Origin: Gammaproteobacteria bacterium
Lineage (GTDB): Bacteria > Pseudomonadota > Gammaproteobacteria > JACKNK01
Length of the DNA: 64,000 bases
Direction: 5' to 3'
Assembly (NCBI GenBank): GCA_024234955.1
Contig: JACKNK010000001.1
Coordinates: 212,835 to 276,834, forward strand
Below, one piece after another: positions 20,475-61,171 of the stretch. The notes under the pieces were generated by a model. The model did not search any database and had not been told where the DNA came from. It was given only the letters and a program-made list of their open reading frames with translations. Both the position numbers and the translations under genes were made by a program. Within the stretch, counting starts at the first letter, position 1. The number at the start of each line of letters is the position of its first letter.

Positions 20475-22552
20475 GCTGCCACCGCCCATGGCGCTTCACG
20501 CCGCCAAGGATCGTCGTACCAATCCTCGCCCGTGCGATATCGCGCCTTCATGTCTCGCGTAACGGCCTGGAAGTTGTCCGGCAGATCGGCGTCGGATTCG
20601 ACCAGCGGGAAGCGGAGCTTGGTCAGCTTGCCGCCCTCGAGGAGCGCGAAGGCCTGGCCCTTGGGAAGCTGAGTGAGGTCGTAGGCCGCGACCGCCGCCA
20701 CATCCTCCTGACCGACCTGGCCCATCACGCCGGAGGTGAAGTCCACGCCGGTTTCCGGGCTCGGATTGTCCTGGGCGGTCGTTCGCGTGGTGAGTTTGTC
20801 GACTTCGACCTCGGGCACCAGGTTGGTCAGGAACTCGGCGGTCTCCTGTGTCTTCACGCGCAGCATGATCAGCGTGTTGAAGTTGCCGACGATCTGACCG
20901 GCTTTGGCTTGGTCACCGATGCCGGCGAGGATGTCATCCGCCGTCTGGGTGTAGGCAACGATCTCGAAGCCGGCGCCACCGGCCTTGTTGACCATCGGGA
21001 TGAACTGATCCCCGACGAGCTCGTTGAACTCATCACCATGGATGCGTACCCGCATCCGGGTCGCCGGCAGACCGATATCCGGCAGGCCGTGGTCCAGGCC
21101 ATGCTTGTAGAAGTCGCCGGCGACCGAGGTCAGATCGGCGAACATCGAGGCGCCCACTGCGCCACCGACGACGGCATCGGAAAGGCAGTCGAGGCCGATG
21201 TAGACCGTGGCGCCCTGGCGTATCGCGGTCTTCCAATCCAGCAGCGGGCGATCGTCTCCGATGTCCTCGTAGTTCGGAGAGATGAGCTCGCCGATCCGGC
21301 CCGTGGTCAGCTTTTCCAGCAACGGCCCAAGGCTCGACACAATCTTGTCGAAGTAGGTGCGGTCGTAGCGCACCGCCGTGATCAGGCCATCGAGTACCGG
21401 GTCGTAGATCTCCTGCCGCTGGATGTACATCAGCAGGGCCACGGTGCCGTTGGCGCGCCCCTGCAACTCGCGGGGCTTGCCTTTGCCGTCCTGCAACGCT
21501 CGCTCGATGGTTACGACCGACGCTTCCCAGCCATCGGTTCCATGCTCCACCAGATACGACCGTGCGTATCGCACGAACAGCGGTTCGATGTTGGAGATGT
21601 GCCGGCGGATCAGCTGATAGGTGGGGCGCTCGGCGAGCGCGACCAGGGCCTGCGCGATGATGTTGACGAAGCGCCAGCCGAATTCCTTGAACGCGGCCGC
21701 GTTGCCGGCGCTCGGCATCGGGTCGGTCAGGCGGGTGGCCACCTCGGTGATTCGCTGGAAGTGGCCGATCGCGTTGTAACGGCAGGAGACGTCCGGATAA
21801 CCCAGATGGAAGAAGTACACCGGACGACCGGCGCGAAGGCCTTCGTAGATGGTCGTCGTGGCGAGGTCCGCATCGCCTTTCGGATCCATGACGATTGTGC
21901 AGCCGCCGGCGCGGATATCCTGGGTGACCAGGAGCTTCGCGAGCTGGCTCTTGCCGACGCGGGTGGTGCCCAGCACGAGGACGTGACCGACCCGTTCCGA
22001 CATCGGCAGATAGATGTCGGACTCATCGAGCAGACCGACGCCGTGGAGTTCCGGTTTGCCGCCGATAGGCGGATAAGGCCGAACCGGGTTCCAGGGCACG
22101 TCGCGGGAGACCAACCAGGCCACCAGGGCAAGAGCAGGCCCCTTGCCACGCCAGGCGATCTCCACCCTTCGTGCCCACTGCCAGAAGGCGCCAGGTGCCA
22201 GATAAAGGCGTGCGTCACGGCGAGCATCGCGCAGGCGCTGGGTATGCAGCCGATCCCAGGCGAAGCCGCGACCGAGATACAGGTAGCGATCGTTCACCGG
22301 CACTGTTGCGCTCGGCATCGTGAAGCGCGGCATACGCAACAGGCCGCGCTGGTATCGAATGACGGTCATGCCGTCGCGAAATCGCCAGATGGCCAACACC
22401 AGAAGTAGGCCGGCACTCGCCCAAGCGACAGAGGGTGTCAGCAGCAGGACATCCGGTGCCCACAACATGAGTACGGCGGCAGACACACTGGTCACCGCGC
22501 TAAGCAGTTCCTCGGGCGGACGTAGCAAGGCCTCGATGCGATAGGTCTTCAC
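20471..22552 (-). CDS. traD: Conjugative coupling protein TraD (VirD4-like, SXT/TOL subfamily).
   Basis: 693 aa with N-terminal transmembrane segments and a Walker A motif, VLVLGTTRVGKSQLAKLL. Confidence 0.9.
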   Translation of the reverse strand: MKTYRIEALLRPPEELLSAVTSVSAAVLMLWAPDVLLLTPSVAWASAGLLLVLAIWRFRDGMTVIRYQRGLLRMPRFTMPSATVPVNDRYLYLGRGFAWDRLHTQRLRDARRDARLYLAPGAFWQWARRVEIAWRGKGPALALVAWLVSRDVPWNPVRPYPPIGGKPELHGVGLLDESDIYLPMSERVGHVLVLGTTRVGKSQLAKLLVTQDIRAGGCTIVMDPKGDADLATTTIYEGLRAGRPVYFFHLGYPDVSCRYNAIGHFQRITEVATRLTDPMPSAGNAAAFKEFGWRFVNIIAQALVALAERPTYQLIRRHISNIEPLFVRYARSYLVEHGTDGWEASVVTIERALQDGKGKPRELQGRANGTVALLMYIQRQEIYDPVLDGLITAVRYDRTYFDKIVSSLGPLLEKLTTGRIGELISPNYEDIGDDRPLLDWKTAIRQGATVYIGLDCLSDAVVGGAVGASMFADLTSVAGDFYKHGLDHGLPDIGLPATRMRVRIHGDEFNELVGDQFIPMVNKAGGAGFEIVAYTQTADDILAGIGDQAKAGQIVGNFNTLIMLRVKTQETAEFLTNLVPEVEVDKLTTRTTAQDNPSPETGVDFTSGVMGQVGQEDVAAVAAYDLTQLPKGQAFALLEGGKLTKLRFPLVESDADLPDNFQAVTRDMKARYRTGEDWYDDPWRREAPWAVAA

Positions 22553-23085
22553 GAGCGGGCATCCCGAACGAGGCGGCGTAAGGTTTCGGCGACCCGCTCC
22601 CGGTACCGACGCTGACGATCAGCTTTGCCACTGTGATAGCGCCCGACGCCCGACCAGATGTCGTTCTCCGCGCGAACCGCGTTAGCGAGCACCCAGGCGC
22701 CGACCCGCACGTTGTGGGTGGGGTCGAGCGCCAGCCAAGCACTACCAAGCCGGTCCCGATGCCATAGCCAGGACACCTGCATGGGACCGATATCGACGTT
22801 GTCTTCACCCGATTTGAGGAATGACCGCAGCGCCAGCCAGGCCGCTTGCCGACTTGGGTAGTAGTGGCCCGTTCCAGCGACGTTCAAAGTCCAGGGCCAG
22901 GGTCGGAGGCCTTCAGCGGTCTGGCGCCCGGACTCCACCAAAGCGATCGCGTAGAGCAGGGCGGGCGCGACACGAAACTCGTCGCCGGCGTGAACGAACG
23001 CGGACGCAGAATCACTCCCGGCAGCAGGGCTCTGCATCCATGCCACCAACAGGACTGCCGCCCAGAGGCGGTGCTTAATCGCCAT
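22549..23085 (-). CDS. Lytic transglycosylase (SLT domain). The start is taken at MAIKHRLW.
   Basis: It has a signal peptide and the SLT motif LLYAIALVESG. Confidence 0.75.
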   Translation of the reverse strand: MAIKHRLWAAVLLVAWMQSPAAGSDSASAFVHAGDEFRVAPALLYAIALVESGRQTAEGLRPWPWTLNVAGTGHYYPSRQAAWLALRSFLKSGEDNVDIGPMQVSWLWHRDRLGSAWLALDPTHNVRVGAWVLANAVRAENDIWSGVGRYHSGKADRQRRYRERVAETLRRLVRDARS

Positions 23086-44367: not shown

Positions 44368-44583
44368 TGGGGTTTCCTCCAGAGGAAATGAAACCGAGAG
44401 ACACACCGATCTCCCATCCGGGAAGGCGTGTTCCCGGTGGGATTGACGTTGAGAAGTGGGACTCATCGATCGCTGGGAGCGGTCGATCGCGACGTTACGG
44501 AGTCCGAGGCGTCGCTTTAGTCGGCCTACCGAAGCAGGCACGAAACTGATTCGGACCCTAGATCAGGTCCGAAGAACAGGCAG

Positions 44584-44655: not shown

Positions 44656-44856
44656 TCAAGCGGCGTTGGACTCCCCATCACCGGCACCGGCCTGCTCACT
44701 CTTGATGCGCTCGTAGATCTCCTCACGGTGCACCGCGACGTCGCGAGGGGCGTCGATACCAATGCGCACCTGATTGCCCACCACTGCCAACACGGTGACC
44801 GAAACGTCGTCACCGATCATCAGTGTTTCACCAACGCGACGCGTAAGGATCAGCAC
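44656..44856 (-). CDS. csrA: CsrA/RsmA-family carbon storage regulator, the ICE-borne copy.
   Basis: [51 protein letters not shown] is near-identical to the CsrA consensus. Confidence 0.9.
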
Positions 44857-45143
44857 GGCTTGACCTCCTTCACGCGCTCTTTGAGCGCCTGACCCGGCTT
44901 GAAGCCGATGGAAGTGCGCGCCGGCGCCGTCTGCATCTCGCCGGTTCGCGGATTGCGTACCTGCCGCGCATCACGGGCTCGGAGCTGGAACGTGCCGAAG
45001 TCACGGATCTGCACACTGTGACCCTGCGCGAGTGCGTCGCTGATCGCCTCGATGACGGCATCGACCGCGTCACCGGCAGCCTTGTTGGACATGCTCAAGT
45101 TGTCGGCGACGGCTTCCACCAGGTCGCGCTTAATCTTACTCAT
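44850..45143 (-). CDS. HU/IHF-family DNA-binding protein.
   Basis: It has the motif [22 protein letters not shown]...GFKPG. Confidence 0.85.
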
Positions 45144-46243: not shown

Positions 46244-46268
46244 CGAAAGCTTTAAACCACTGGTTTAA
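46244..46268. promoter_or_regulatory. Perfect 23-bp palindrome, gctttaaacca-c-tggtttaaagc, an operator-like site. Three gRaccgtca motifs lie upstream at ~46100-46170.
   Basis: Read from the sequence, in the intergenic region upstream of the 142-aa gene. Confidence 0.5.
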
Positions 46269-46317
46269 AGCGTTTGGCACGATCTTTGAGACACGGCGAG
46301 CGGATCACCCGTGCCGA

Positions 46318-47130
46318 CTACTGAGCCACCTCCTCATCCGCCGGCTCATCCACCTCGCCGTCGACCTTGAAGTCCATGTCGGAATTCGTCTCGGTGTCCC
46401 GCTCATGTTGAGCCATGGCCATGCCACGGTTAAACACCGGCAGCCGTGGAGGAGCGAAGGGCGCAACGACGGTGCCGGTCAGAATCTCGGATGGAATCTC
46501 GCCATACTTCTCCACTGCCTCACGCGCTCGCTTGGTGTTGTGCTCGAAGTCCGCGTGGGACACACCGGTGAATCGATAGCCCTGCGTCAAGATGAACGCA
46601 TGCCGCACTGCCGAGCTCGCCTCGCCGATCAGGCGATGCGCGCGTTCACGTTCCAGGAAGCCGATATGGGCCAGCGTGCGTACCGTGCGCACATAAGTGT
46701 CGAGATCCTGCAACAGATAGGCGCAACGGAACCCATACGGGTTGTTGAAGCGCAGCGTGATGGTCGCTGGGCGTCTCGTGATACCGGGCTCCGCAGTGAC
46801 ACCCGGCCGCGATGCCATCAGCTTGCGACCGCCTTCAAGCAATTTGGACAGGTACTCGGCTTTCTCGGTCAGGGACTCATGAACCCGTACCAGCATCCAG
46901 TCGGCATACGGATCGCCATCGCGATAGCCGGCAAGGATGTTACGCAGCGCGGCGCCCGCCTGGCGTAGGCCGATGATCCCGTGCTTGCCGGTGTCGTCAT
47001 CGCGCCGGCGACCGTCGACCAACATGAACGCGGTGCGGGTATGCACCACCATCGTGGTCTCGGATACCAGTCCACCGGGCGGATTGTCTGAATGCGGGGC
47101 AACGCCCGCCGTTGCTTGAGGCTCGGTCAT
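46318..47130 (-). CDS. ICE protein, PFL_4669-family-like (TIGR03761/DUF1845-like).
   Basis: 270 aa with an acidic C-terminus. It lies in a conserved backbone position next to the putative origin region. Confidence 0.4.
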   Translation of the reverse strand: MTEPQATAGVAPHSDNPPGGLVSETTMVVHTRTAFMLVDGRRRDDDTGKHGIIGLRQAGAALRNILAGYRDGDPYADWMLVRVHESLTEKAEYLSKLLEGGRKLMASRPGVTAEPGITRRPATITLRFNNPYGFRCAYLLQDLDTYVRTVRTLAHIGFLERERAHRLIGEASSAVRHAFILTQGYRFTGVSHADFEHNTKRAREAVEKYGEIPSEILTGTVVAPFAPPRLPVFNRGMAMAQHERDTETNSDMDFKVDGEVDEPADEEVAQ

Positions 47131-47459
47131 GGCTCAGCTCTTGGTGTGGATGTAGAGCCGGGAACGTACCGATGCGATCAGGAGACACGCGTAAAAGCCC
47201 GTAGTACGGGCTACGCGATTAATTCAAACGAATGCAGGACGGGAGCGTTAGGCGCGCTTGGAGCGCGCCCTGGTGGCGACAAGGATGTCGCCCCTACCTG
47301 GACTCAGCACAGGGATGCGTGCGTGACCAGATCGGAACGGGGTTCGGTCACGGCGCCGAGGTCCGATGCAGCCCGAACCTGACACCCTTCAAAACCATAC
47401 GGCCTGTTGGTTCACGATGACCTGGCAGGAAACACGCCAACGGTACTTATCAGTTGGGA

Positions 47460-47980
47460 AACGGATGCTGTCCAGGGACGGACTCCGAGTAGAAGCGACA
47501 GGATGTCGCGTTCAGGCCGCGTAGCGGGGCGGAACCAAGGAAGGTGAAGGGTAGGCGCGTCCTTGTTTGAAGTCGCGGACTGGGGCGGCTTGAGACAAAT
47601 CCCCATCGAGGTCACCAATGGGAAACTGCTGTCCATGGATGGACGCCTTTCATGCACGGCAGGAAGCCGTGCTTAGGCCGCGAAGCGGGGCGCAGCCAGG
47701 ACGGCGGAGGGTAGGCGCGCGAAGCGCGGTCGAAATTCGCGGTTTTTCCACACGTGAACCGCTTCCAAAAACTACAGGCTTTATATAAAGGTCTGAATAG
47801 GGAGCTACAGGTAGGTACAGGCGGTTCGCTGGAGGCCGCATCTACATTGCCTTTCGGGCCTGTCAGCGGGAGTGATTCTGCGTCAGGGCGGGAGTGATTC
47901 TGCGTAGGACCGGGAGTGATTCTGCGTAGGACCGGGAGTGATTCTGCGTAGGGCCGGGAGCGATTCTGCGCGTACTTCCA
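47460..47980. repeat. Iteron-like repeat region. It has two degenerate ~160-bp direct repeats (47467-47627 and 47628-~47790), an AT-rich core (ttatataaagg) and a DnaA-box-like ttttccaca. Five tandem 22-bp repeats, ccgggagtgattctgcgtagga, span 47867-47976. It is a candidate origin of replication.
   Basis: Repeats were read directly from the sequence. The region is a ~940-bp non-coding gap. Confidence 0.6.
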
Positions 47981-48071
47981 CAGGGTATGCACAGCATATC
48001 CCCAACTACTGAACAAATAGACGCCACCGGCTGCGCCCCGTCGACAGACTGGGTGAGCCGGTTGGCTGAAA

Positions 48072-48851
48072 TTAGAGAAGGCTGGCTTGAGCGCCGAGCT
48101 TTGGCATGTCGTCCCATGTGCGGCCACTCAACAGCCGTCCATTCTTGGACTTGGCTCGCCGCTTACCGTCAGCACCCCAACCACCCCATTGCTTGAAGAA
48201 GAAAAGCACGTGGTCACGGTCGCACTGCCGCTGCACGTTCAAAGCCCATTCCTCATGCATAGGGCGAGCTTTCGGGCCTGATTCACCGCCGACAATCACC
48301 CAATCGATGCCGTTCAGATCGAGCCGGCCGAGATCCTCAAGCAGAGGTTCGACGGACAAGAAGCGGATTGCGGCGTCAACGGTACGAAGGGCATCAATAC
48401 GCGGCAATCCGTGTTTGCGGTTCTCCACGCTGACACCCAGCCAGACGTTCACTGGCGCTTTCCGTGTCGAGAAGTATTCCGCCATCCGCTCTGCGCGTTT
48501 GGTCAGGATCTGATAGGTGTGCTGCGGCGTTTCAGTGATTACCTTGAACACTTGGTCAAGGAATGAGTCTGGGACGTCCTCGTGGAACAGGTCGCTCATC
48601 GAGTTGACGAAGTAAACGGTCGCTTTTTTTCGCTGCCTCGGCTCGTCTAGCCGTTTTGCCAACAGCGTCAGGTTGAAGCCGTTCCCATATCCAGGCGCGC
48701 CCATGGCTTGCAGCCGTCTAGCCATCACTTCGGCGTAACAGTGCTTACAACCAGGAGAAACCTTGGTACAGCCGGTAGTCGGGTTCCAAGTCCTCTCAGT
48801 CCATTCGATTTTTGACTCGGTCCCCATGGGACATCCTCCAGAAGGCCGCAC
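48072..48851 (-). CDS. DUF5131 / phage Gp37-Gp68-family three-Cys-motif protein.
   Basis: It has the N-terminal motif KIEWTERTWNPTTGCTKVSPGCKHCYA (C-x6-C-x2-C). GC is low. Confidence 0.7.
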   Translation of the reverse strand: MRPSGGCPMGTESKIEWTERTWNPTTGCTKVSPGCKHCYAEVMARRLQAMGAPGYGNGFNLTLLAKRLDEPRQRKKATVYFVNSMSDLFHEDVPDSFLDQVFKVITETPQHTYQILTKRAERMAEYFSTRKAPVNVWLGVSVENRKHGLPRIDALRTVDAAIRFLSVEPLLEDLGRLDLNGIDWVIVGGESGPKARPMHEEWALNVQRQCDRDHVLFFFKQWGGWGADGKRRAKSKNGRLLSGRTWDDMPKLGAQASLL

Positions 48852-49111
48852 AACGACTGTACGAATAATCAGTATTATAGTGCTCCTTCACGACCGAAGG
48901 AGCTCATTCACATGCAGATATTGCGGCTGCTCAACCTCAGCCGAAGCAAAACCATGTCTCAAGGTCGCCGCTCTTATAGCCGATCGTAGCTGGCTAACGA
49001 CAGTGCGTACGTTCCACGACTGGTGTTCGCGCAGGGGGCAAGCCTGCACGGTCACGCATACACTTGGCTTTTTTCAGTACGCCGGAACGAGGAGCCGGAA
49101 GGAAACCAAGG

Positions 49112-50269
49112 ATGAAATTACCAGAGCGATACCACCGCCATGAACAGGCCTATGTGAAGCACGAGTTGCTATCCGGCTACCTGGAAGTGCTTCTAATGAT
49201 TATCGGCCAATGGGCGAAGGAAATCGTCTACATCGATTGTTTCGCCGGCCCTTGGTGTGACGATTCCGATGACATCGAGGGAACCTCCATCGCTCGGTCG
49301 ATCGCAATCATGCAGAAGGCTCGAGACAGCCTCGCGTCGGCTGGTAAGTACGTCACCATGCGTGCTTTGTACATTGAGCGTGATGACGATGCCTACACGC
49401 GGTTGCAAAATTACTTGGCAACCAAACGAACGGCTGTTGAAACTCAGTGCCTGAAAGGCGATTTTGTCGAACTCAGAGACCAGATCCTTCAGTGGGCCGG
49501 ATCTCGTGCCTTTGCCTTCTTCTTCGTCGACCCCAAAGGCTATCGCGATGTGGCGCTACCGCATCTACGACCGCTTCTGGAACGACCGCAGAGCGAGTTT
49601 TTGATCAACTTCATGTACTCGTTCGTCAACATGGCCAACTCCGACAAGAACAGGCAAGCATTTTCGAAATACCTTCTGGAGCTGTTCGGAGAAATCCCGG
49701 TGGTTGATGGTCTGTCACCAGTCGAACGCGAGGACCGATTGCTGTCCTTGTACACGGATCGGGTGAAGGATGGTGTGGGTCCAGACGCCAGGGCGACCGC
49801 AGTAAAGGTCTTAGACCCAACCAAGGACCGGACGAAGTATCACCTCGTGTATCTCACGCGCAATCCGCTTGGCATCATCAAGTTCATGGAACAGTCCGAG
49901 CGATGCGCAATCGTCCAGGAGCGTGTGCGCCTCGACGCCAAACTGAGAGCAAAAGAAGAACGTACCGGAACAGGTGATTTATTTGCGGATGACGACGGAG
50001 ACGATTCCGTCTCAACAATGGCTGCAACCGACTTCCAGCAACCGCTCCGAGAACATTGGCTTGGGTGGGTCAGTACGGTTCCCAAAGCGTTCACGAAAGA
50101 AGATTTCGCCTCCATGATCGAGACCACTGGTGCATATCCAAGTCAGATTCAAATGGCATTGGGATCCCTGATCAGTGAAGGTCGAATACAGAATCTCGAT
50201 TCACGCGGTAAGCGAAGAAAGAATTTCGTTCATTTCTCCAAGAACGAACGGCTTGTTCTGTTCCAGTAG
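49112..50269 (+). CDS. tcmP: Three-Cys-motif partner protein TcmP-like. The start is taken at MKLPERYH.
   Basis: It has the motifs HEQAYVKHELLSGYLEVLLMIIG...IDCFAGPW. An SD (aagga) precedes the internal ATG. It is divergent from the DUF5131 gene. Confidence 0.6.
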   Translation: MKLPERYHRHEQAYVKHELLSGYLEVLLMIIGQWAKEIVYIDCFAGPWCDDSDDIEGTSIARSIAIMQKARDSLASAGKYVTMRALYIERDDDAYTRLQNYLATKRTAVETQCLKGDFVELRDQILQWAGSRAFAFFFVDPKGYRDVALPHLRPLLERPQSEFLINFMYSFVNMANSDKNRQAFSKYLLELFGEIPVVDGLSPVEREDRLLSLYTDRVKDGVGPDARATAVKVLDPTKDRTKYHLVYLTRNPLGIIKFMEQSERCAIVQERVRLDAKLRAKEERTGTGDLFADDDGDDSVSTMAATDFQQPLREHWLGWVSTVPKAFTKEDFASMIETTGAYPSQIQMALGSLISEGRIQNLDSRGKRRKNFVHFSKNERLVLFQ

Positions 50270-56855: not shown

Positions 56856-57115
56856 AATGACCATGGGGTGGGGGCACGGTCCTCGTGTTCGTTTCCGCAA
56901 AGCTCGCCATCGAGCAACGGTAACGTTCAAGCGAACGATGGCCCCTTTGGTGGTGGCCACTCCGAGAGTGGCTCACTACCCGTCGGCCCACGCACCGGTG
57001 CCGACTTACCGGAGCGACCCCTCTGAGCACCCTTGGCCGGGGTGTACAGAGCGTTGCCACGACGTTTCGTGGTGCTTGAGCGGCGACGTCGCCGTGCCCC
57101 CACCCCATGGTCATT
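56856..57115. repeat. Perfect 24-bp inverted repeats, aatgaccatggggtgggggcacgg / ccgtgcccccaccccatggtcatt, flanking a ~212-bp non-coding segment. Its structure is MITE-like.
   Basis: The arms at 56856-56879 and 57092-57115 were read directly. The right arm overlaps the stop of the RepA-like gene. Confidence 0.7.
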
Positions 57116-58052
57116 TCTTTGTTTTGTTCTTTACGTTCACCGGCCTTACATGCGTCCGTGACGGATAGAGCCGTAGGTATTCTGCGTCGTGGTCGACACG
57201 CGCTTGGGGAAACACCTGAAGGACGTGCTTGAGGTTTGGGATGAAGCCCTTGTTCCTGAAGTCACGTAAGCCCTGAGTGGTGTCGGGATAGCCGGCCCCG
57301 AACTGCTTTTGCAGGTAGATCCAGGGGATCGGCGTTGGTCGCCGTAAGTACGAGAACCGATGTGTGAGCCAGCAGTAGATGTCCATGGCCATCGAGGAGC
57401 CACGCAGCGCGTGCATGGCTTGAAGGCTGATCGGAATTGGTGCGGCGGTTACTTCCTCGAAGAAGTTCTCAGAGAGCTTTACGGAGGACTGACCTAAGCC
57501 AAGCTGGTTGGGGTTGTCCGGATCCCACCAAAGGCTGACGTCATCGGTGATGTCGCATTTGCGCTGTGAGAAGGCCTTCCCATCGTCGTAGATGATCCGG
57601 ATCGATGCCGTGAACAATTTGATCGACTGGTCACGCACGACTCGAATCGTGCCGCGTTGGCCCCCCGTCATGTGATCGATGCCGATGTTGGCCAGGTAAT
57701 CACCGAACGTGGCGCCGAGGCCGATCCATCGCTCCTTGGTTTCGACCGCGCGCGTCGTCAACCAAGCGAGGATCAGTCGCGGCTTTGGCCCGTAGGGCAG
57801 GCCGTATCGCGGATCGGAGCTCACCACGACTCGTAGATGGCCATTCGCACGTTCGTGGGAGTAGGCACGGGTGCGTGCGTGGGGCAGGGTCGCACGGGCC
57901 AGTGTCTGAGCCATGTATCCGACCGCGCCGGCGGCGCGGGCTTCTTCGGTCTCCTGTCCCAACGCCTCCTCATACAGCAGATCGAGCGAGGCTTGCTGGC
58001 TCGCCTGCTCGGTCGCGGACAGATCGTTATCCAAGGCGTGACGTGAACTCAT
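57111..58052 (-). CDS. Conserved ICE protein, possibly a replication-initiator-like (RepA/RPA-family) protein.
   Basis: 313 aa. It is located between parB-like and topB, as in related ICEs. The family assignment comes from memory of the element layout, not from a motif. Confidence 0.35.
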   Translation of the reverse strand: MSSRHALDNDLSATEQASQQASLDLLYEEALGQETEEARAAGAVGYMAQTLARATLPHARTRAYSHERANGHLRVVVSSDPRYGLPYGPKPRLILAWLTTRAVETKERWIGLGATFGDYLANIGIDHMTGGQRGTIRVVRDQSIKLFTASIRIIYDDGKAFSQRKCDITDDVSLWWDPDNPNQLGLGQSSVKLSENFFEEVTAAPIPISLQAMHALRGSSMAMDIYCWLTHRFSYLRRPTPIPWIYLQKQFGAGYPDTTQGLRDFRNKGFIPNLKHVLQVFPQARVDHDAEYLRLYPSRTHVRPVNVKNKTKK

Positions 58053-58610
58053 GCGGCGTTCTCCTTGGCGTCGTGGAAGATCGCCCGGAGTGAGATGCCG
58101 GTGAGTCTGGCTACTGCCAGATAGCCGTGCGCCAGACGGGTTTTGTCCTCGTCATCGCGTCGGATTCCACGAGTCTGTTCCAGGTTGTCCCACGCATCCT
58201 CTACCAACGCTTCGTCAACGGCGCCGAGGTGCGGAGGGCGACCGACCAAGGGGGGGAGGGCCAGGCGGTTTCGCCGCCGCTGGTATTGGTGCTCGCTCCA
58301 ACCAAACAGAAATTCCATCAATGAGCGAGGCGCTTCGGCCTTGAGCAGCGCGTCCTCGATGGAGCGGCCGCGTTTCGCATCCCGCGCTCGACGCACCAGA
58401 TCCTGGAGGCTTTGGACGTTCAATACGTTAACGACGACCGCGCGTGCAGAAAGGATCGTTTCGGGGTCGAGTCCTTCCGCGATATCGAGCCGCATGGCTT
58501 CATCGATGCCGAGATCTCGCAGCGTTGTCACGCTGCCGTTGTTCACCAGACCCTGGAGGTAATCCAACACGGCTTTCGCCAGCAGCCCCTCATTCGTGAT
58601 CGCGTTCATC
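58049..58610 (-). CDS. Conserved ICE hypothetical protein. The start is taken at MNAITNEG.
   Basis: About 187 aa. It sits in the operon with parB-like. Confidence 0.35.
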
Positions 58611-60330
58611 GCGCGCCCCTCCCTTCCCAAAGCGGTATCCCGAGCGAGGTCATCGCGCGATAGGTCGCGATCAAGTCGTCGACCAAATCCGCGTCTCGAT
58701 GCCCGCTTTGGGTTGCCAGGGACAACAGTCCCGGCGCGAAAGCGGGGCCATGGAGCATCTGCGCGTGATCCTGGGCGATTCGGAACACCACCTCCGGTCG
58801 ATCGCTGTCCGCGATCGCAGGTGTGATTGCCCGTTCAGCCCATGCCGGAGGGAGTGCATGACGAACGGTGTCCGGGTCCGCGTGAAACTGCTCGGACAGG
58901 CTCGCAAGGAACCACCAGGCGGCATGACCCTCCGGCTTGATCGATGATGCTCCGACACCGAGGGAGGTCACGAAGTCGATGACGTATCCCAGCCCGGTGG
59001 CATGCACTGTCGGTTCCACCAAGGCGCCAAGGCCATGACGCGTCGCCAGCTGTTTTGCCAGCGTGTACATCCGGGCGCGGTGATTCTTCACCTCATTGGG
59101 CGTCGGGCGTGCTGCGGAATCGTGTCGCGGCGCTGCTGATTGCGCTTCGTCCGGTGTCACTCGGTGCGCCGGCGGAAATGTAGTGCCCGTATCCCTGGAA
59201 AGTTGAAACGATCCACTACCGCTGCCGTGACTGGCGCCACCGCTGGAGAGCGGCTCATCGTCTCCCCATACGTTCCCTGGTTCGAAATCACCATCCTCCA
59301 ATTCATCCGGATGGGACGGGTCGCCGGTTAGATCGAATGGTGGTTCGTCTTCGGTTGGTGTTGATCTTTCGGGGCGTTCTGCCGACCTGGGCTTCGAGGG
59401 CTTCTTCGCCTGGGAACGCGCGACAGCGTCGCGATAGGTGTCGCCTTCCGGGCGGGCGGCGCCGGGATCGCCGAGATACGAACCGATTTCGCAGCCGGCC
59501 ATCATTACGGTGATTTCCGCAAATTGACTGGCGTTCTCGTCCAGCCGCCGGCGTAGCTTGTTCAGGTCGAAATCCGGGCCATCGAGCGCACCGAGGATTT
59601 GCAGAAACGCTTCGTGACCGGTTTCAGGTGCTCCGCATTCGCGCCAGGCCCACCACGACATCCAGGCCTCGTAGTGGGACTTGATCTCAATGACAGTCGG
59701 TCGTCCCAAGCCGAAGCTGAAGGCCTCCGGGAGTGATTCCCCGATCACTTCAACGGCGAATTGCATCGCACCGAGATGCTGTTGGTGAGCCCGGTAGCCC
59801 TTGTCCGCGAGCAACTCGACCAGACGCTTCTGCGTTAGCGATTCGCCGAGCTCTTCCTCAAGCGCGCGTTTGGCGTTGTGAATACCAAGTGCCCGTTCAA
59901 AGAATTTCAGATCGGTGCGCTGGTCGTTCTCGGCGAGGTGCTGGGCGTAGAGCCACGCCTCGCCCTGGTAGGGGATAAAGGTGACCGGGACAGTCTTGAA
60001 GCGCGGTACCGCCGGATATTCGACCGCGAGCTCGTTGAGAATCCCCAGCCGGGTGTTGCCGCCCTCGGAAACGACGTAATGCTCTTCACCCGGCCGACGT
60101 GTGACCGGGATGCGATCACGGAGTCTGGTTTTGAGGATGGAGTCCTTGATTTCGTCCCACTTCGAGTTCTTCGTGATTCGGGGATTGCCCTCGAATCGCC
60201 GGATCCGATCGAGCGGCAATTCCATGTCGGTGATTTCCACCGGGTCTTGCGACGCTATCGTCCCGTTGTTGCCGAAGTGGGTTGCTCCCAATGCTTCTTT
60301 CGCCAGTTCGCTTGCAACCTTCTTAGCCAT
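58606..60330 (-). CDS. ParB-like nuclease-domain protein. The start is at MAKKVASE. The listed ORF start overlaps parA by 337 nt.
   Basis: It has the ParB N-terminal region ELPLDRIRRFEGNPR...VVSEGGNTRLGILNEL. The ATG lies 2 nt after the parA stop. Confidence 0.7.
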   Translation of the reverse strand: MAKKVASELAKEALGATHFGNNGTIASQDPVEITDMELPLDRIRRFEGNPRITKNSKWDEIKDSILKTRLRDRIPVTRRPGEEHYVVSEGGNTRLGILNELAVEYPAVPRFKTVPVTFIPYQGEAWLYAQHLAENDQRTDLKFFERALGIHNAKRALEEELGESLTQKRLVELLADKGYRAHQQHLGAMQFAVEVIGESLPEAFSFGLGRPTVIEIKSHYEAWMSWWAWRECGAPETGHEAFLQILGALDGPDFDLNKLRRRLDENASQFAEITVMMAGCEIGSYLGDPGAARPEGDTYRDAVARSQAKKPSKPRSAERPERSTPTEDEPPFDLTGDPSHPDELEDGDFEPGNVWGDDEPLSSGGASHGSGSGSFQLSRDTGTTFPPAHRVTPDEAQSAAPRHDSAARPTPNEVKNHRARMYTLAKQLATRHGLGALVEPTVHATGLGYVIDFVTSLGVGASSIKPEGHAAWWFLASLSEQFHADPDTVRHALPPAWAERAITPAIADSDRPEVVFRIAQDHAQMLHGPAFAPGLLSLATQSGHRDADLVDDLIATYRAMTSLGIPLWEGRGAR

Positions 60331-61171
60331 GACGCGTCTCCTCGTCAGTGGCCATGACAATCTCGCGATCACGCAGGTGCTCGAAGAGCTCGTCGACGAG
60401 TGCTCGCATGGTCTCGGCAGCACTTGGCGTCGGCCCGCGACGTACCGGTTCCACCAGGTGGACGGGTAGGGCGCGGGTAGCGGCGTTTGCGTACGCAACG
60501 GTGTGTGGAATCTGAGTGTTGAGAATGCGGACTCGGCCTTGCGACCGGGTGAAAGCAGCTTCTCGAAGCGCGGCCACGAAGGCTGCGGAGTCGGCGGTTC
60601 GCTCAACACCATTGACCAGCCCGTACAAGGTGCCGATCGACCCATCGCGGAAGACGCCATCGATGTCTTCGACGGCCTCGATCATGCCTCGCGCAAATTC
60701 TTGCGCCGCAAGGCGACTCGGCATGATGGGGCTCAGTACGAAATCACCGGCGAGCAGGGCCGCGTGGAGAAGCGGGCTTCTGGTTCCCGGCGAGTCGATG
60801 AGAACGACGTCGTAGCCGGAAAGCGCCCGTACCGCGCGCCGGAGCCGGATACGCCCATCCGGCGTCGACTCCATCCAGCGTTGAAGTTCGCCCTGGCGGT
60901 CGTTGGACACCACCAAGTCGAGATTCGGGAAACTGGTCCTGGAGATGACCCCATCCCAGGCTTCCGTTGGATCCCGCCTGGTCACCAGTTCCACCAGGCC
61001 TGCTTCCGCCGGTTCGTCGATCTTGAAGTACGACGACAAACCCGGCTGGATGTCTCCGTCGATTAACAACACTCGTTCACCGAGTGCCGCTAACATGCCC
61101 CCCAAGTTGGCGGTTGTTGTGGTCTTTCCGGTACCGCCTTTACTGCTGCAAACCGCTACGATGATCGTCAT
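60323..61171 (-). CDS. soj: ParA/Soj-family partition ATPase, the first ICE gene next to the att repeat.
   Basis: It has a deviant Walker A motif, VCSSKGGTGKTTTTANLG. Confidence 0.9.
   Translation of the reverse strand: MTIIVAVCSSKGGTGKTTTTANLGGMLAALGERVLLIDGDIQPGLSSYFKIDEPAEAGLVELVTRRDPTEAWDGVISRTSFPNLDLVVSNDRQGELQRWMESTPDGRIRLRRAVRALSGYDVVLIDSPGTRSPLLHAALLAGDFVLSPIMPSRLAAQEFARGMIEAVEDIDGVFRDGSIGTLYGLVNGVERTADSAAFVAALREAAFTRSQGRVRILNTQIPHTVAYANAATRALPVHLVEPVRRGPTPSAAETMRALVDELFEHLRDREIVMATDEETRHG

Follow-up and report, generated by a model that had tools for sequence, protein, structure and literature searches.

An origin-like cassette in a non-coding gap

The 64,000-nucleotide (nt) stretch of gammaproteobacterial DNA studied here (the window, in which all coordinates are given; Table 1) carries an integrative conjugative element, or ICE, of the PFGI-1/pKLC102/ICEclc family. 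Between a regulator gene of the AcaB/PFL_4669 family and a DUF5131 gene, this ICE has a 941-bp gap, which a first-pass annotation had proposed to be a theta-type, iteron-bearing origin of replication served by a RepA-like protein encoded elsewhere in the window. That the gap is single and non-coding, as annotated, is borne out by the map of open reading frames (ORFs), by Pfam matches of the flanking genes and by independent gene calls: none of the genes called in an independent assembly of the same element lies inside 47131-48071, and the ORFs overlapping the gap gave no match in a Pfam search. A 171-residue ORF on the minus strand (47612-48127) was considered as a gene and rejected; it has no family match, is uncalled in the source annotation and consists mostly of repeat sequence. 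We suggest that the gap is probably the origin of vegetative replication (oriV) of a RepA_C-type, iteron-controlled theta replicon. Contigs and other stretches used for comparison are labelled with L numbers (L003, pKLC102; L004, pMBUI6; L113, the independent assembly).

The five tandem 22-bp repeats of the first-pass annotation were recovered by three routes. Tandem Repeats Finder (TRF) delineated 47865-47970 with a period of 22, 4.8 copies and 92% matches, a repeat search found copies every 22 bp with starts at 47867, 47889, 47911 and 47933, and by eye five units could be counted, starting at 47865, 47887, 47909, 47931 and 47953. A 15-nt core, GGGAGTGATTCTGCG, is invariant in units 1-4, units 3 and 4 are fully identical and unit 5 (GCCGGGAGCGATTCTGCGCGTA) is degenerate. 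The number of matches to the 22-bp unit expected from shuffled sequences is 0.01, and the 22-mer lacks dyad symmetry. In the independent short-read assembly (L113 2050-3030, compared with 47100-48100 of the window), the gap is identical except for one 22-bp unit fewer (four iterons versus five), reflecting either true copy-number variation or a collapse of repeats during assembly.

On the far side of an AT-rich segment from the iterons lies the DnaA-box-like motif that had been pointed out in the gap, TTTTCCACA, placed and oriented like TTATCCACA or TTGTCCACA in plasmid origins; the variant found here is also present in L053, L068 and L006. The AT-rich core likewise noted in the first-pass annotation is real but modest, with a GC content of 0.49 in 47750-47849 compared to ~0.60 in the surroundings.

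Table 1. Positions in the window of the origin-like gap, its parts, its flanking genes and genes that may act with it
Feature	Coordinates	Strand	Basis or remark
csrA on the ICE, possible partner of the GGA hairpins if these act as RNA	44656..44856	-	PF02599, E 4e-26; gene call in L113
Regulator gene of the AcaB/PFL_4669 (TIGR03761) family, one gap flank	46318..47130	-	PF08900, E 2e-54
Non-coding gap with the whole origin-like cassette	47131..48071	.	ORF map and Pfam of flanking genes
Two more perfect GGA-loop hairpins, GGCGCGC-TTGGA-GCGCGCC and GGCGACA-AGGA-TGTCGCC	47251..47292	+	
Hairpin element, copy 1	47481..47563	+	R1 64.3 bits; 161 bp upstream of copy 2
Hairpin element, copy 2	47642..47723	+	blastn match to plasmid origins; R1 66.8 bits, E 1e-16
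Terminator-like hairpin CGCGGTCGAAATTCGCG with a T5 run behind it, between copy 2 and the DnaA box	47725..47748	+	
DnaA-box-like motif TTTTCCACA	47744..47752	+	one mismatch to TTATCCACA; 20 nt past the hairpin element
AT-rich segment, candidate unwinding region	47753..47825	.	GC minimum
CTACAGG 7-mers	47772-47778, 47805-47811		within the AT-rich segment
ttatataaagg	47781-47791		within the AT-rich segment
TACAGG	47816-47821		within the AT-rich segment
Five direct 22-bp iterons, consensus ccGGGAGTGATTCTGCGTAGga, non-palindromic	47865..47974	+	TRF, repeat search, visual unit count
CCACAGG motif directly 3' of the last iteron	47978..47984	+	likewise after the iterons in L006, L010, L012 and L050
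DUF5131 gene, other gap flank	48072..48851	-	ORF map, Pfam
repA, replication initiator of the RepA_C family, presumed iteron binder	57111..58052	-	PF04796, E 1.8e-30
DUF2857 gene	58049-58630	-	
ParB-like gene, ICE_PFGI_1_parB (TIGR03764)	58606-60660	-	longest ORF
ParA gene	60323-61171	-	

The cassette resembles the origins of RepA_C replicons

When origins linked to RepA_C genes were set side by side, a common order of parts emerged. The tail TAGGCG of a hairpin element, which is described in the next section, is followed by a spacer of 15-35 nt, a DnaA box on the plus strand and three 7-mers in an AT-rich segment; then come a further spacer of 50-90 nt, three to five iterons and a CCACAGG or DnaA-like motif. 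All of these parts are present in the window (DnaA box at 47744; 7-mers at 47772, 47805 and 47816; CCACAGG at 47978). Three 7-mers of the form CTACAGG, ATATAGG or CTATAGG occupy the equivalent place in the RepA_C-linked L006, L010, L012, L037, L060 and L084 as well as in L004.

The iterons themselves are also related. The window iteron CCGGGAGTGATTCTGCGTA and the iteron CCGGGAGTTGTTCTGCGAA of the RepA_C-linked contig L050 agree in 16 of 19 bases, and an iteron core GGGAGT-NN-TTC is common to the window, the RepA_C-linked L005, L037 and L050, and L004, i.e. pMBUI6, whose rep gene lies outside the fetched stretch. The iteron thus appears to belong to the class used by RepA_C origins, matching the ICE's own Rep.

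This presumed initiator, RepA, aligns with the RepA of the Xanthomonas plasmid pMSCT15kb at 39% identity over 271 residues (E 3e-64) and with the Reps beside origins that bear the hairpin element at 30-42% identity; its plasmid relatives number more than 1000 Reps, those of IncW among them. The gene is intact and full length. In a comparison with a 94%-identical homologue from another sample, the synonymous divergence (pS) was 0.43 and the ratio of nonsynonymous to synonymous divergence (dN/dS) 0.067, indicating that repA is under purifying selection. It closes a parA/parB-like/DUF2857/repA cluster, the upstream part of which (58049..61171) is encoded on the same strand. The order ParA-ParB-DUF2857-RepA_C recurs in the ICE-type contig L013, and a third, short ICE-type contig, L014, shows ParB (partial)-DUF2857-RepA_C. 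The similarity of architecture, iteron and initiator to those of RepA_C replicons supports the theta-type iteron origin, with RepA as its initiator, that had been proposed for the gap.

Between repA and the gap lie topB, a TraG_N gene and a DUF5131/TcmP pair. The latter (48072-50269) consists of the DUF5131 (phage Gp37/Gp68) gene and a divergent gene for a TcmP "three-Cys-motif partner" protein (TIGR04474), and has the appearance of a cargo pair; the DUF5131 gene has ~70% DNA identity to genes on Pseudomonas megaplasmids.

Iteron sequence is also found at two other places in the window. A lone exact copy of 18-19 nt (CCGGGAGTGATTCTGCGTC; 23003..23021, minus strand) lies in the signal-peptide-coding part of an SLT-domain gene (22549-23085) that adjoins a type IV coupling protein gene. 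Given an expectation of ~2e-6 for an exact 18-mer in 128 kb, this copy cannot be due to chance, and it might be a handcuffing partner or a regulatory site. Within the ParB-like gene that precedes repA, there is an exact 11-nt copy of the iteron core (GGGAGTGATTC; 59729-59743, plus strand), which may represent a weak additional site or a chance occurrence.

The ~160-bp repeats are copies of a conserved hairpin element

The first-pass annotation had also described two degenerate direct repeats of ~160 bp, and these could be reproduced: blocks recur at a spacing of 160-161, and in a global alignment 47440-47600 and 47601-47761 are 62% identical, 7.6 standard deviations above shuffled sequences. 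The best-conserved parts are two cores, 47481-47563 and 47642-47723. Far from being filler, these repeats are copies of a conserved, structured element found together with such origins. In a sensitive blastn search of the gap against PLSDB, only 60 bp in the core of the second repeat (47658-47717) gave a match, at 84%, to a non-coding stretch upstream of rep in plasmids of Pseudomonas (P.) hydrolytica and P. mendocina, in which the element is followed by AT-rich 13-mers, eight 21-22-bp iterons and a Rep_3 gene. A Rep_3 gene of this kind was looked for in the window, which contains none. With the plasmid copy as a query, the element was detected in more plasmids, from Pseudomonas, Xanthomonas, Sedimenticola, Thioflavicoccus and Pseudolysobacter, always in non-coding DNA.

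The aligned instances consist of three hairpins and a tail, G(G/A)AGGG(T/C)AGGCG. In the consensus, hairpin A has a variable stem and a loop reading A(T)GGA(T)G, hairpin B, which varies in length, is GGCCGCC-GAA-GGCGGGGC, and hairpin C is AGCCA-(T)GGA-TGGCG. Copy 2 of the window accordingly comprises CACGGC-AGGAA-GCCGTG (A), CCGC-GAA-GCGG (B), GCC-AGGAC-GGC (C) and the tail GGAGGGTAGGCG; in copy 1, hairpin A is GCGACA-GGA-TGTCGC. Among all perfect GGA-loop hairpins in the window, five of the 16 on the plus strand fall into the gap, compared to none of the 17 on the minus strand, and GGA occurs 25 times versus seven times for TCC, revealing a strand-biased signal.

We built a covariance model, R1, from the aligned instances and scanned metagenome contigs with a strict pattern made up of the non-stem positions and the outer hairpin-B pairs, by which 98 stretches were found and 80 of them fetched; a scan of viral contigs yielded no instance. 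In 84 distinct sequences aligned to R1, 89% of the cells were paired, compared to 67% in shuffled sequences, and the covariation score was 0.432, compared to 0.04-0.06 with slid partners. All eight pairs of hairpin A and three of the four pairs of hairpin C showed changes on both sides (one pair occurs as GC 39, CG 28 and UA 10 times). While an alignment fitted to R1 favors structure, hairpin A lies wholly outside the search pattern and folds in 12 of 12 sequences taken singly. Its loop contains GGA in 80 of 83 distinct sequences (~26% expected). G-U pairs occupy 14 of 1392 cells (1.0%) and are no commoner than A-C combinations (25 cells, 1.8%), and both strands fold better than shuffled sequences (z -2.3 and -2.9). 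A run of at least four T residues follows the element in 29 of 83 instances (35%), versus eight of 81 in a control stretch.

An Rfam 15 search of the gap returned nothing at the gathering score and nothing up to E 10. A scan of the gap for sigma-70 promoters found no site, and upstream of 81 element instances there was no promoter signal at a conserved position. A full-text literature search with the element's sequence strings, with oriV plus single-strand initiation (ssi) signals and with oriV plus CsrA RNA yielded nothing relevant. Neither Rfam 15 nor the searchable literature therefore appears to contain a description of the hairpin element.

The element marks one side of origins with diverse initiators

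In the plasmids, wherever the fetched stretch reached a rep gene, the element lay 260-1100 bp from it. The adjoining plasmid rep genes belong to the Rep_3, RepA_C (PF04796) and RPA families; near other instances we found a gene for a TrfA-like protein and an unnamed family of ~350 residues. The element is also present in pMBUI6. The members of the ~350-residue family have no Pfam match, occupy the place of rep near element-bearing origins (L028, L058, L059, L085 and L092) and share the motifs LSLFQ.F..NT.DER, TYRQFNY and QLARWLH; they likely constitute an uncatalogued initiator family.

The arrangement around the element is strongly polar. Among the distinct instances from outside the window, 77 had at least 450 nt of downstream sequence, and the upstream side was scored in 78. 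Three or more copies of an 11-mer were found downstream in 67 of 77 cases and upstream in one of 78; a DnaA box with at most one mismatch lay within 160 nt downstream in 45 of 77 cases and upstream in two of 78; a 40-nt stretch of at least 70% A+T occurred downstream in 52 of 77 and upstream in 25 of 78. The order of element, DnaA box, AT-rich region and iterons is constant, with the rep gene on either strand, and as in the window, two copies of the element are present in L004 and L050. The element thus marks the DnaA-box side of origins, in one orientation, across at least five Rep families.

Not all RepA_C origins carry it. Within 2.5 kb of repA, the element is absent in the RepA_C replicons of IncW (pIE321), IncN, PromA-like, Variovorax and Ralstonia type, suggesting that it is an optional accessory lying outside the minimal origin.

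A search of the 80 metagenome loci for ICE marker genes revealed no ICE-like locus. Two instances reside on very long contigs, L081 (967,574 bp) and L074 (418,507 bp), so that the cassette may also occupy other integrated elements or megareplicons. In L081 (2150-2500), three iterons come after the element, along with two DnaA boxes and a short ORF that we suspect to be a truncated rep; in L074, two repeat copies follow the element, and neither a DnaA box nor a rep was matched.

Single-stranded DNA signal or RNA

Most likely, the hairpin element, in two tandem copies on the DnaA-box side, is an accessory module that works independently of the Rep family, via a host factor. It would act either as single-stranded DNA (ssDNA) exposed when the origin opens, i.e. 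as a priming or loading signal, or as a short RNA. Signals such as ssi sites, the G site of plasmid R1 and the single-strand origins (sso) of rolling-circle plasmids are covarying hairpins with conserved loops that act in a single orientation beside an origin; known single-strand origins are built from covarying stems that carry conserved loops. By this model, to which we give nearly even odds, the hairpins would form in ssDNA upon unwinding past the DnaA box and provide an orientation-dependent priming or helicase-loading signal. The fixed orientation and position of the element relative to DnaA box, AT-rich region and iterons, irrespective of Rep family and rep strand, argue for such a role, as do the strong covariation of the stems with almost no wobble pairs, the folding of both strands and the lack of promoter conservation. 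On the other hand, no known primase or PriA recognition motif was identified, the asymmetry of the GGA loops has no known reader at the DNA level and GGA loops are, to our knowledge, not a described ssi feature. Moreover, the absence of the element from IncW, IncN, PromA-like and Ralstonia RepA_C origins shows it to be dispensable for this origin class.

Alternatively, the plus strand of ~47250-47750 might be transcribed into a CsrB/RsmZ-like RNA that binds CsrA/RsmA of the host or the ICE and couples the activity of the origin or the physiology of the ICE to the Csr/Rsm system. The loops would then read A(U)GGA(U)G; GCGACAGGATGTCGC contains ACAGGAUGU, which we take to be the CsrA SELEX (systematic evolution of ligands by exponential enrichment) consensus. 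Like CsrB, RsmY and RsmZ, the region has several short GGA-loop hairpins and single-stranded GGA, at a density of about one GGA per 25 nt. The near-invariance of GGA in a hairpin that was not part of the search pattern, the restriction of the signal to the plus strand, the terminator-like hairpin with T5 after copy 2 and the enrichment of T-runs after the element all favor an RNA, as does the csrA gene on the ICE; in L030, a csrA gene lies 1.5 kb from the element. Unlike the Csr/Rsm RNAs, however, the element matches no Rfam model even at E 10, is preceded by neither a GacA-type promoter nor a sigma-70-like site in the gap nor a promoter at a conserved distance, has few G-U pairs (no more than A-C combinations) and occupies a fixed place within origins. 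Nor does a trans-acting RNA account for the strictly polar association with DnaA box and iterons that the element shows in at least five Rep families. In addition, csrA was found in only one of the 80 metagenome loci, as far as their DNA was fetched, and in none of the annotated plasmid stretches shown. We therefore regard an RNA as possible, with something like one chance in three, and rank a DNA-level signal somewhat ahead of it. Taken together, we tentatively propose that the element, with its three to five covarying GGA-loop hairpins and the tail GGAGGGTAGGCG, is an undescribed, host-factor-dependent module of theta origins, serving as an ssDNA priming/loading signal or a CsrA/RsmA-binding RNA; this proposal could well be right, but we put it just short of an even chance.

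Further observations concern csrA and its surroundings. On the ICE, csrA and an HU-family gene (44850-45143, minus strand) lie directly downstream of ssb, ~2.3 kb from the GGA-loop hairpins, and CsrA homologues are encoded on 291 PLSDB plasmids. Nearby, ARAGORN called an 83-nt tRNA-Pro(GGG) at 44441-44523 (plus strand), inside a DUF3577 ORF; without an Rfam tRNA match at the gathering score, this call is probably a false positive.

Alternative roles of the gap

Several observations weigh against a functional RepA_C origin in the gap. The DnaA box deviates by one mismatch and the AT-rich stretch is weak, the best 40-nt window reaching 65% A+T compared to 75-85% in many plasmid instances. Rep gene and origin are 9 kb apart, while they are adjacent in every plasmid and in SGI1 (Salmonella genomic island 1). 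In ICEclc, the best-studied member of the family, the excised element needs the origin of transfer (oriT) oriT1 and the relaxase, TraI, for its replication, not a Rep protein and iterons (10.1101/451864). Finally, no sufficiently long close relative was found in which conservation of the origin could be followed: the 94% RepA relative resides on a 3.7-kb contig that ends before the origin, the contig of a 55% relative ends 1.2 kb past rep, and the AcaB-like protein as a query retrieved one remote locus in a scan of genome contigs and only itself and a 36% relative in a search of 5.8 billion proteins.

The distance between rep and origin, the cargo-like genes between them, the likeness of the DUF5131 gene to megaplasmid genes and the precedent of ICEclc would all suit a dead relic, i.e. 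a plasmid origin that was captured together with cargo (DUF5131, TcmP) and no longer fires, leaving the ICE to replicate via relaxase and oriT only. We consider this unlikely, as the 15-nt iteron core is identical in four units and all parts of the cassette are intact and in order. Moreover, repA is under strong purifying selection and resides in the ICE backbone cluster of three elements, and the iterons are of the class that fits the ICE's own Rep.

The 22-bp repeats could also be a partition or loading array for the ParB-like (BisD-like) protein of the ICE or an operator array of the AcaB/BisR-like gene, rather than Rep iterons, considering that the ICE encodes a PFGI-1-type ParB-like protein, that the repeats lie upstream of a regulator gene and that the ParB-like BisD of ICEclc is loaded within this regulatory region, at palindromic bisS sites (PMC12409273). 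However, bisS and parS sites are palindromes, while dyad symmetry is lacking in the 22-mer; a perfect 11-n-11 palindrome exists separately, at 46249-46271; 735-845 bp separate the iterons from the start codon of the regulator gene; and similar arrays follow the element and a DnaA box beside plasmid rep genes. Such a function of the repeats is therefore very improbable. Least probable of all, and in our view barely worth entertaining, is that the gap is the oriT of the ICE, an alternative already mentioned in the first-pass annotation: oriT regions are likewise repeat-rich and non-coding, but homologous cassettes reside beside rep genes in plasmids typed as non-mobilizable, no relaxase gene is adjacent, and the hairpins covary freely outside their GGA loops, unlike the inverted repeat at a nic site.

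The preferred reading, a RepA_C-type oriV, suggests a mode of action modeled on homologous replicons. RepA of the ICE would bind the five 22-bp iterons and host DnaA the box at 47744-47752; together they would open the AT-rich CTACAGG segment between them, at which the host helicase and replisome would be loaded. RepA would be produced together with the BisD/BisC-like proteins, and only in a switched-on ICE, because repA ends a cluster whose ICEclc counterparts activate transfer competence: in ICEclc, the ParB-like and DUF2857 proteins (BisD and BisC) are the master activators. The origin would then fire on the excised circle, as in SGI1.

Comparison with known systems

For twenty years, the "oriV upstream of PFL_4669" of the PFGI-1/pKLC102/ICEclc family has been a sequence-based guess, to which no recognizable initiator was assigned. 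In PFGI-1, a putative oriV of ~1100 bp with 23-bp perfect palindromes and 46-bp repeats was placed just upstream of PFL_4669, with the remark that a Rep is not encoded (PMC2647930). The postulated oriV of pKLC102 consists of 15-16 57-bp repeats between the gene following DUF2857 and the PFL_4669-family gene (PMC7685784). The first-pass annotation had suggested a comparison with the latter, and the site indeed corresponds: in the same ICE family, a ~1-kb non-coding region lies directly upstream of a PFL_4669-family gene. The repeats and the initiator, by contrast, are unrelated. The units of pKLC102 and PFGI-1 are 57, 46 or 23 bp long and contain palindromes, while the window array has a period of 22 and no dyad; their arrays have an STY4528-family protein or no Rep alongside, and their role as origins is postulated. 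The blastn search of the 1-kb gap against the plasmid collection, which includes pKLC102, gave the two P. hydrolytica/P. mendocina matches only, the two repeat arrays not having been aligned with each other directly, and R1 scores the pKLC102 array at no better than E 0.1-0.4. Window RepA is likewise dissimilar to the STY4528-family "pathogenicity island replication protein" that pKLC102 encodes at the rep position (no NF040582 match; BLAST E 0.17). The window thus seems to present the same site with another type of replicon.

In view of this contrast, the palindromic arrays found in pKLC102 and PFGI-1 may serve another purpose; considering how BisD loads in ICEclc, they may be ParB/BisD loading arrays rather than Rep iterons. 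In pKLC102 (L003, 6716-7581), each 57-bp unit holds a 9-n-9 palindrome, GTGGTGCCA-C-TGGCACCAC. The perfect 11-n-11 palindrome of the window, GCTTTAAACCA-C-TGGTTTAAAGC (46249-46271), which has no second copy there, lies just past the downstream end of the AcaB/BisR-like gene; it shares the geometry of bisS and is a candidate loading site for the ParB-like protein.

ICEclc belongs to the same family and presumably gains the same end, extra copies of the excised element in activated cells, but its replication starts at oriT, requires the relaxase and involves neither Rep nor iterons nor a DnaA box. The corresponding locus of the window appears to carry a Rep-iteron-DnaA origin of textbook form, for which the backbone cluster has a matching RepA_C gene, offering a testable case of plasmid-type replication in this family. 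In many environmental gammaproteobacterial plasmids, the accompanying hairpin element sits on the DnaA-box side of the origin irrespective of Rep family, and it is a practical marker for origins in metagenomes; should it prove to be a priming signal or a CsrA target, it would add a new host-dependent layer to plasmid origin function.

The RepA_C plasmids pMSCT15kb, pXcaw58 and a 54-kb plasmid of P. aeruginosa (NZ_CP068679), as well as pMBUI6, have the same order of parts and share the hairpin element, CTACAGG and CCACAGG with the window; the Reps of the RepA_C plasmids are homologous to window RepA (30-42% identity), and the window's iteron core GGGAGT-NN-TTC recurs in the P. aeruginosa plasmid and pMBUI6. 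In the RepA_C plasmids, however, the origin abuts the 3' end of repA, whereas in the window it lies 9 kb away, in an integrated element and upstream of a PFL_4669-family regulator.

Among proven cases, the rep (S003)/oriV pair of SGI1 comes closest; it resembles the present system in having a RepA_C initiator and an iteron origin on a chromosomally integrated mobile element. In SGI1, the excised island replicates only with both the RepA_C rep gene and the adjacent oriV, in which four iterons of 17 bp are combined with a DnaA box and an AT-rich region bearing three repeats of 8 bp; expression of rep is under the control of AcaCD, the activator of transfer (PMC7433901). As a mobilizable island, SGI1 differs from a self-transmissible, PFGI-1-type ICE; its oriV lies directly downstream of rep, and its 17-bp iterons are of another sequence class (RKGGGGGHRATTATGCG). 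Function has been proven in SGI1, while for the window it is proposed from sequence comparison. The kind of replicon thus seems familiar, a RepA_C iteron replicon as in SGI1 and the plasmids; what appears to be new is its presence at the PFGI-1-type "oriV" locus, split from its rep gene.

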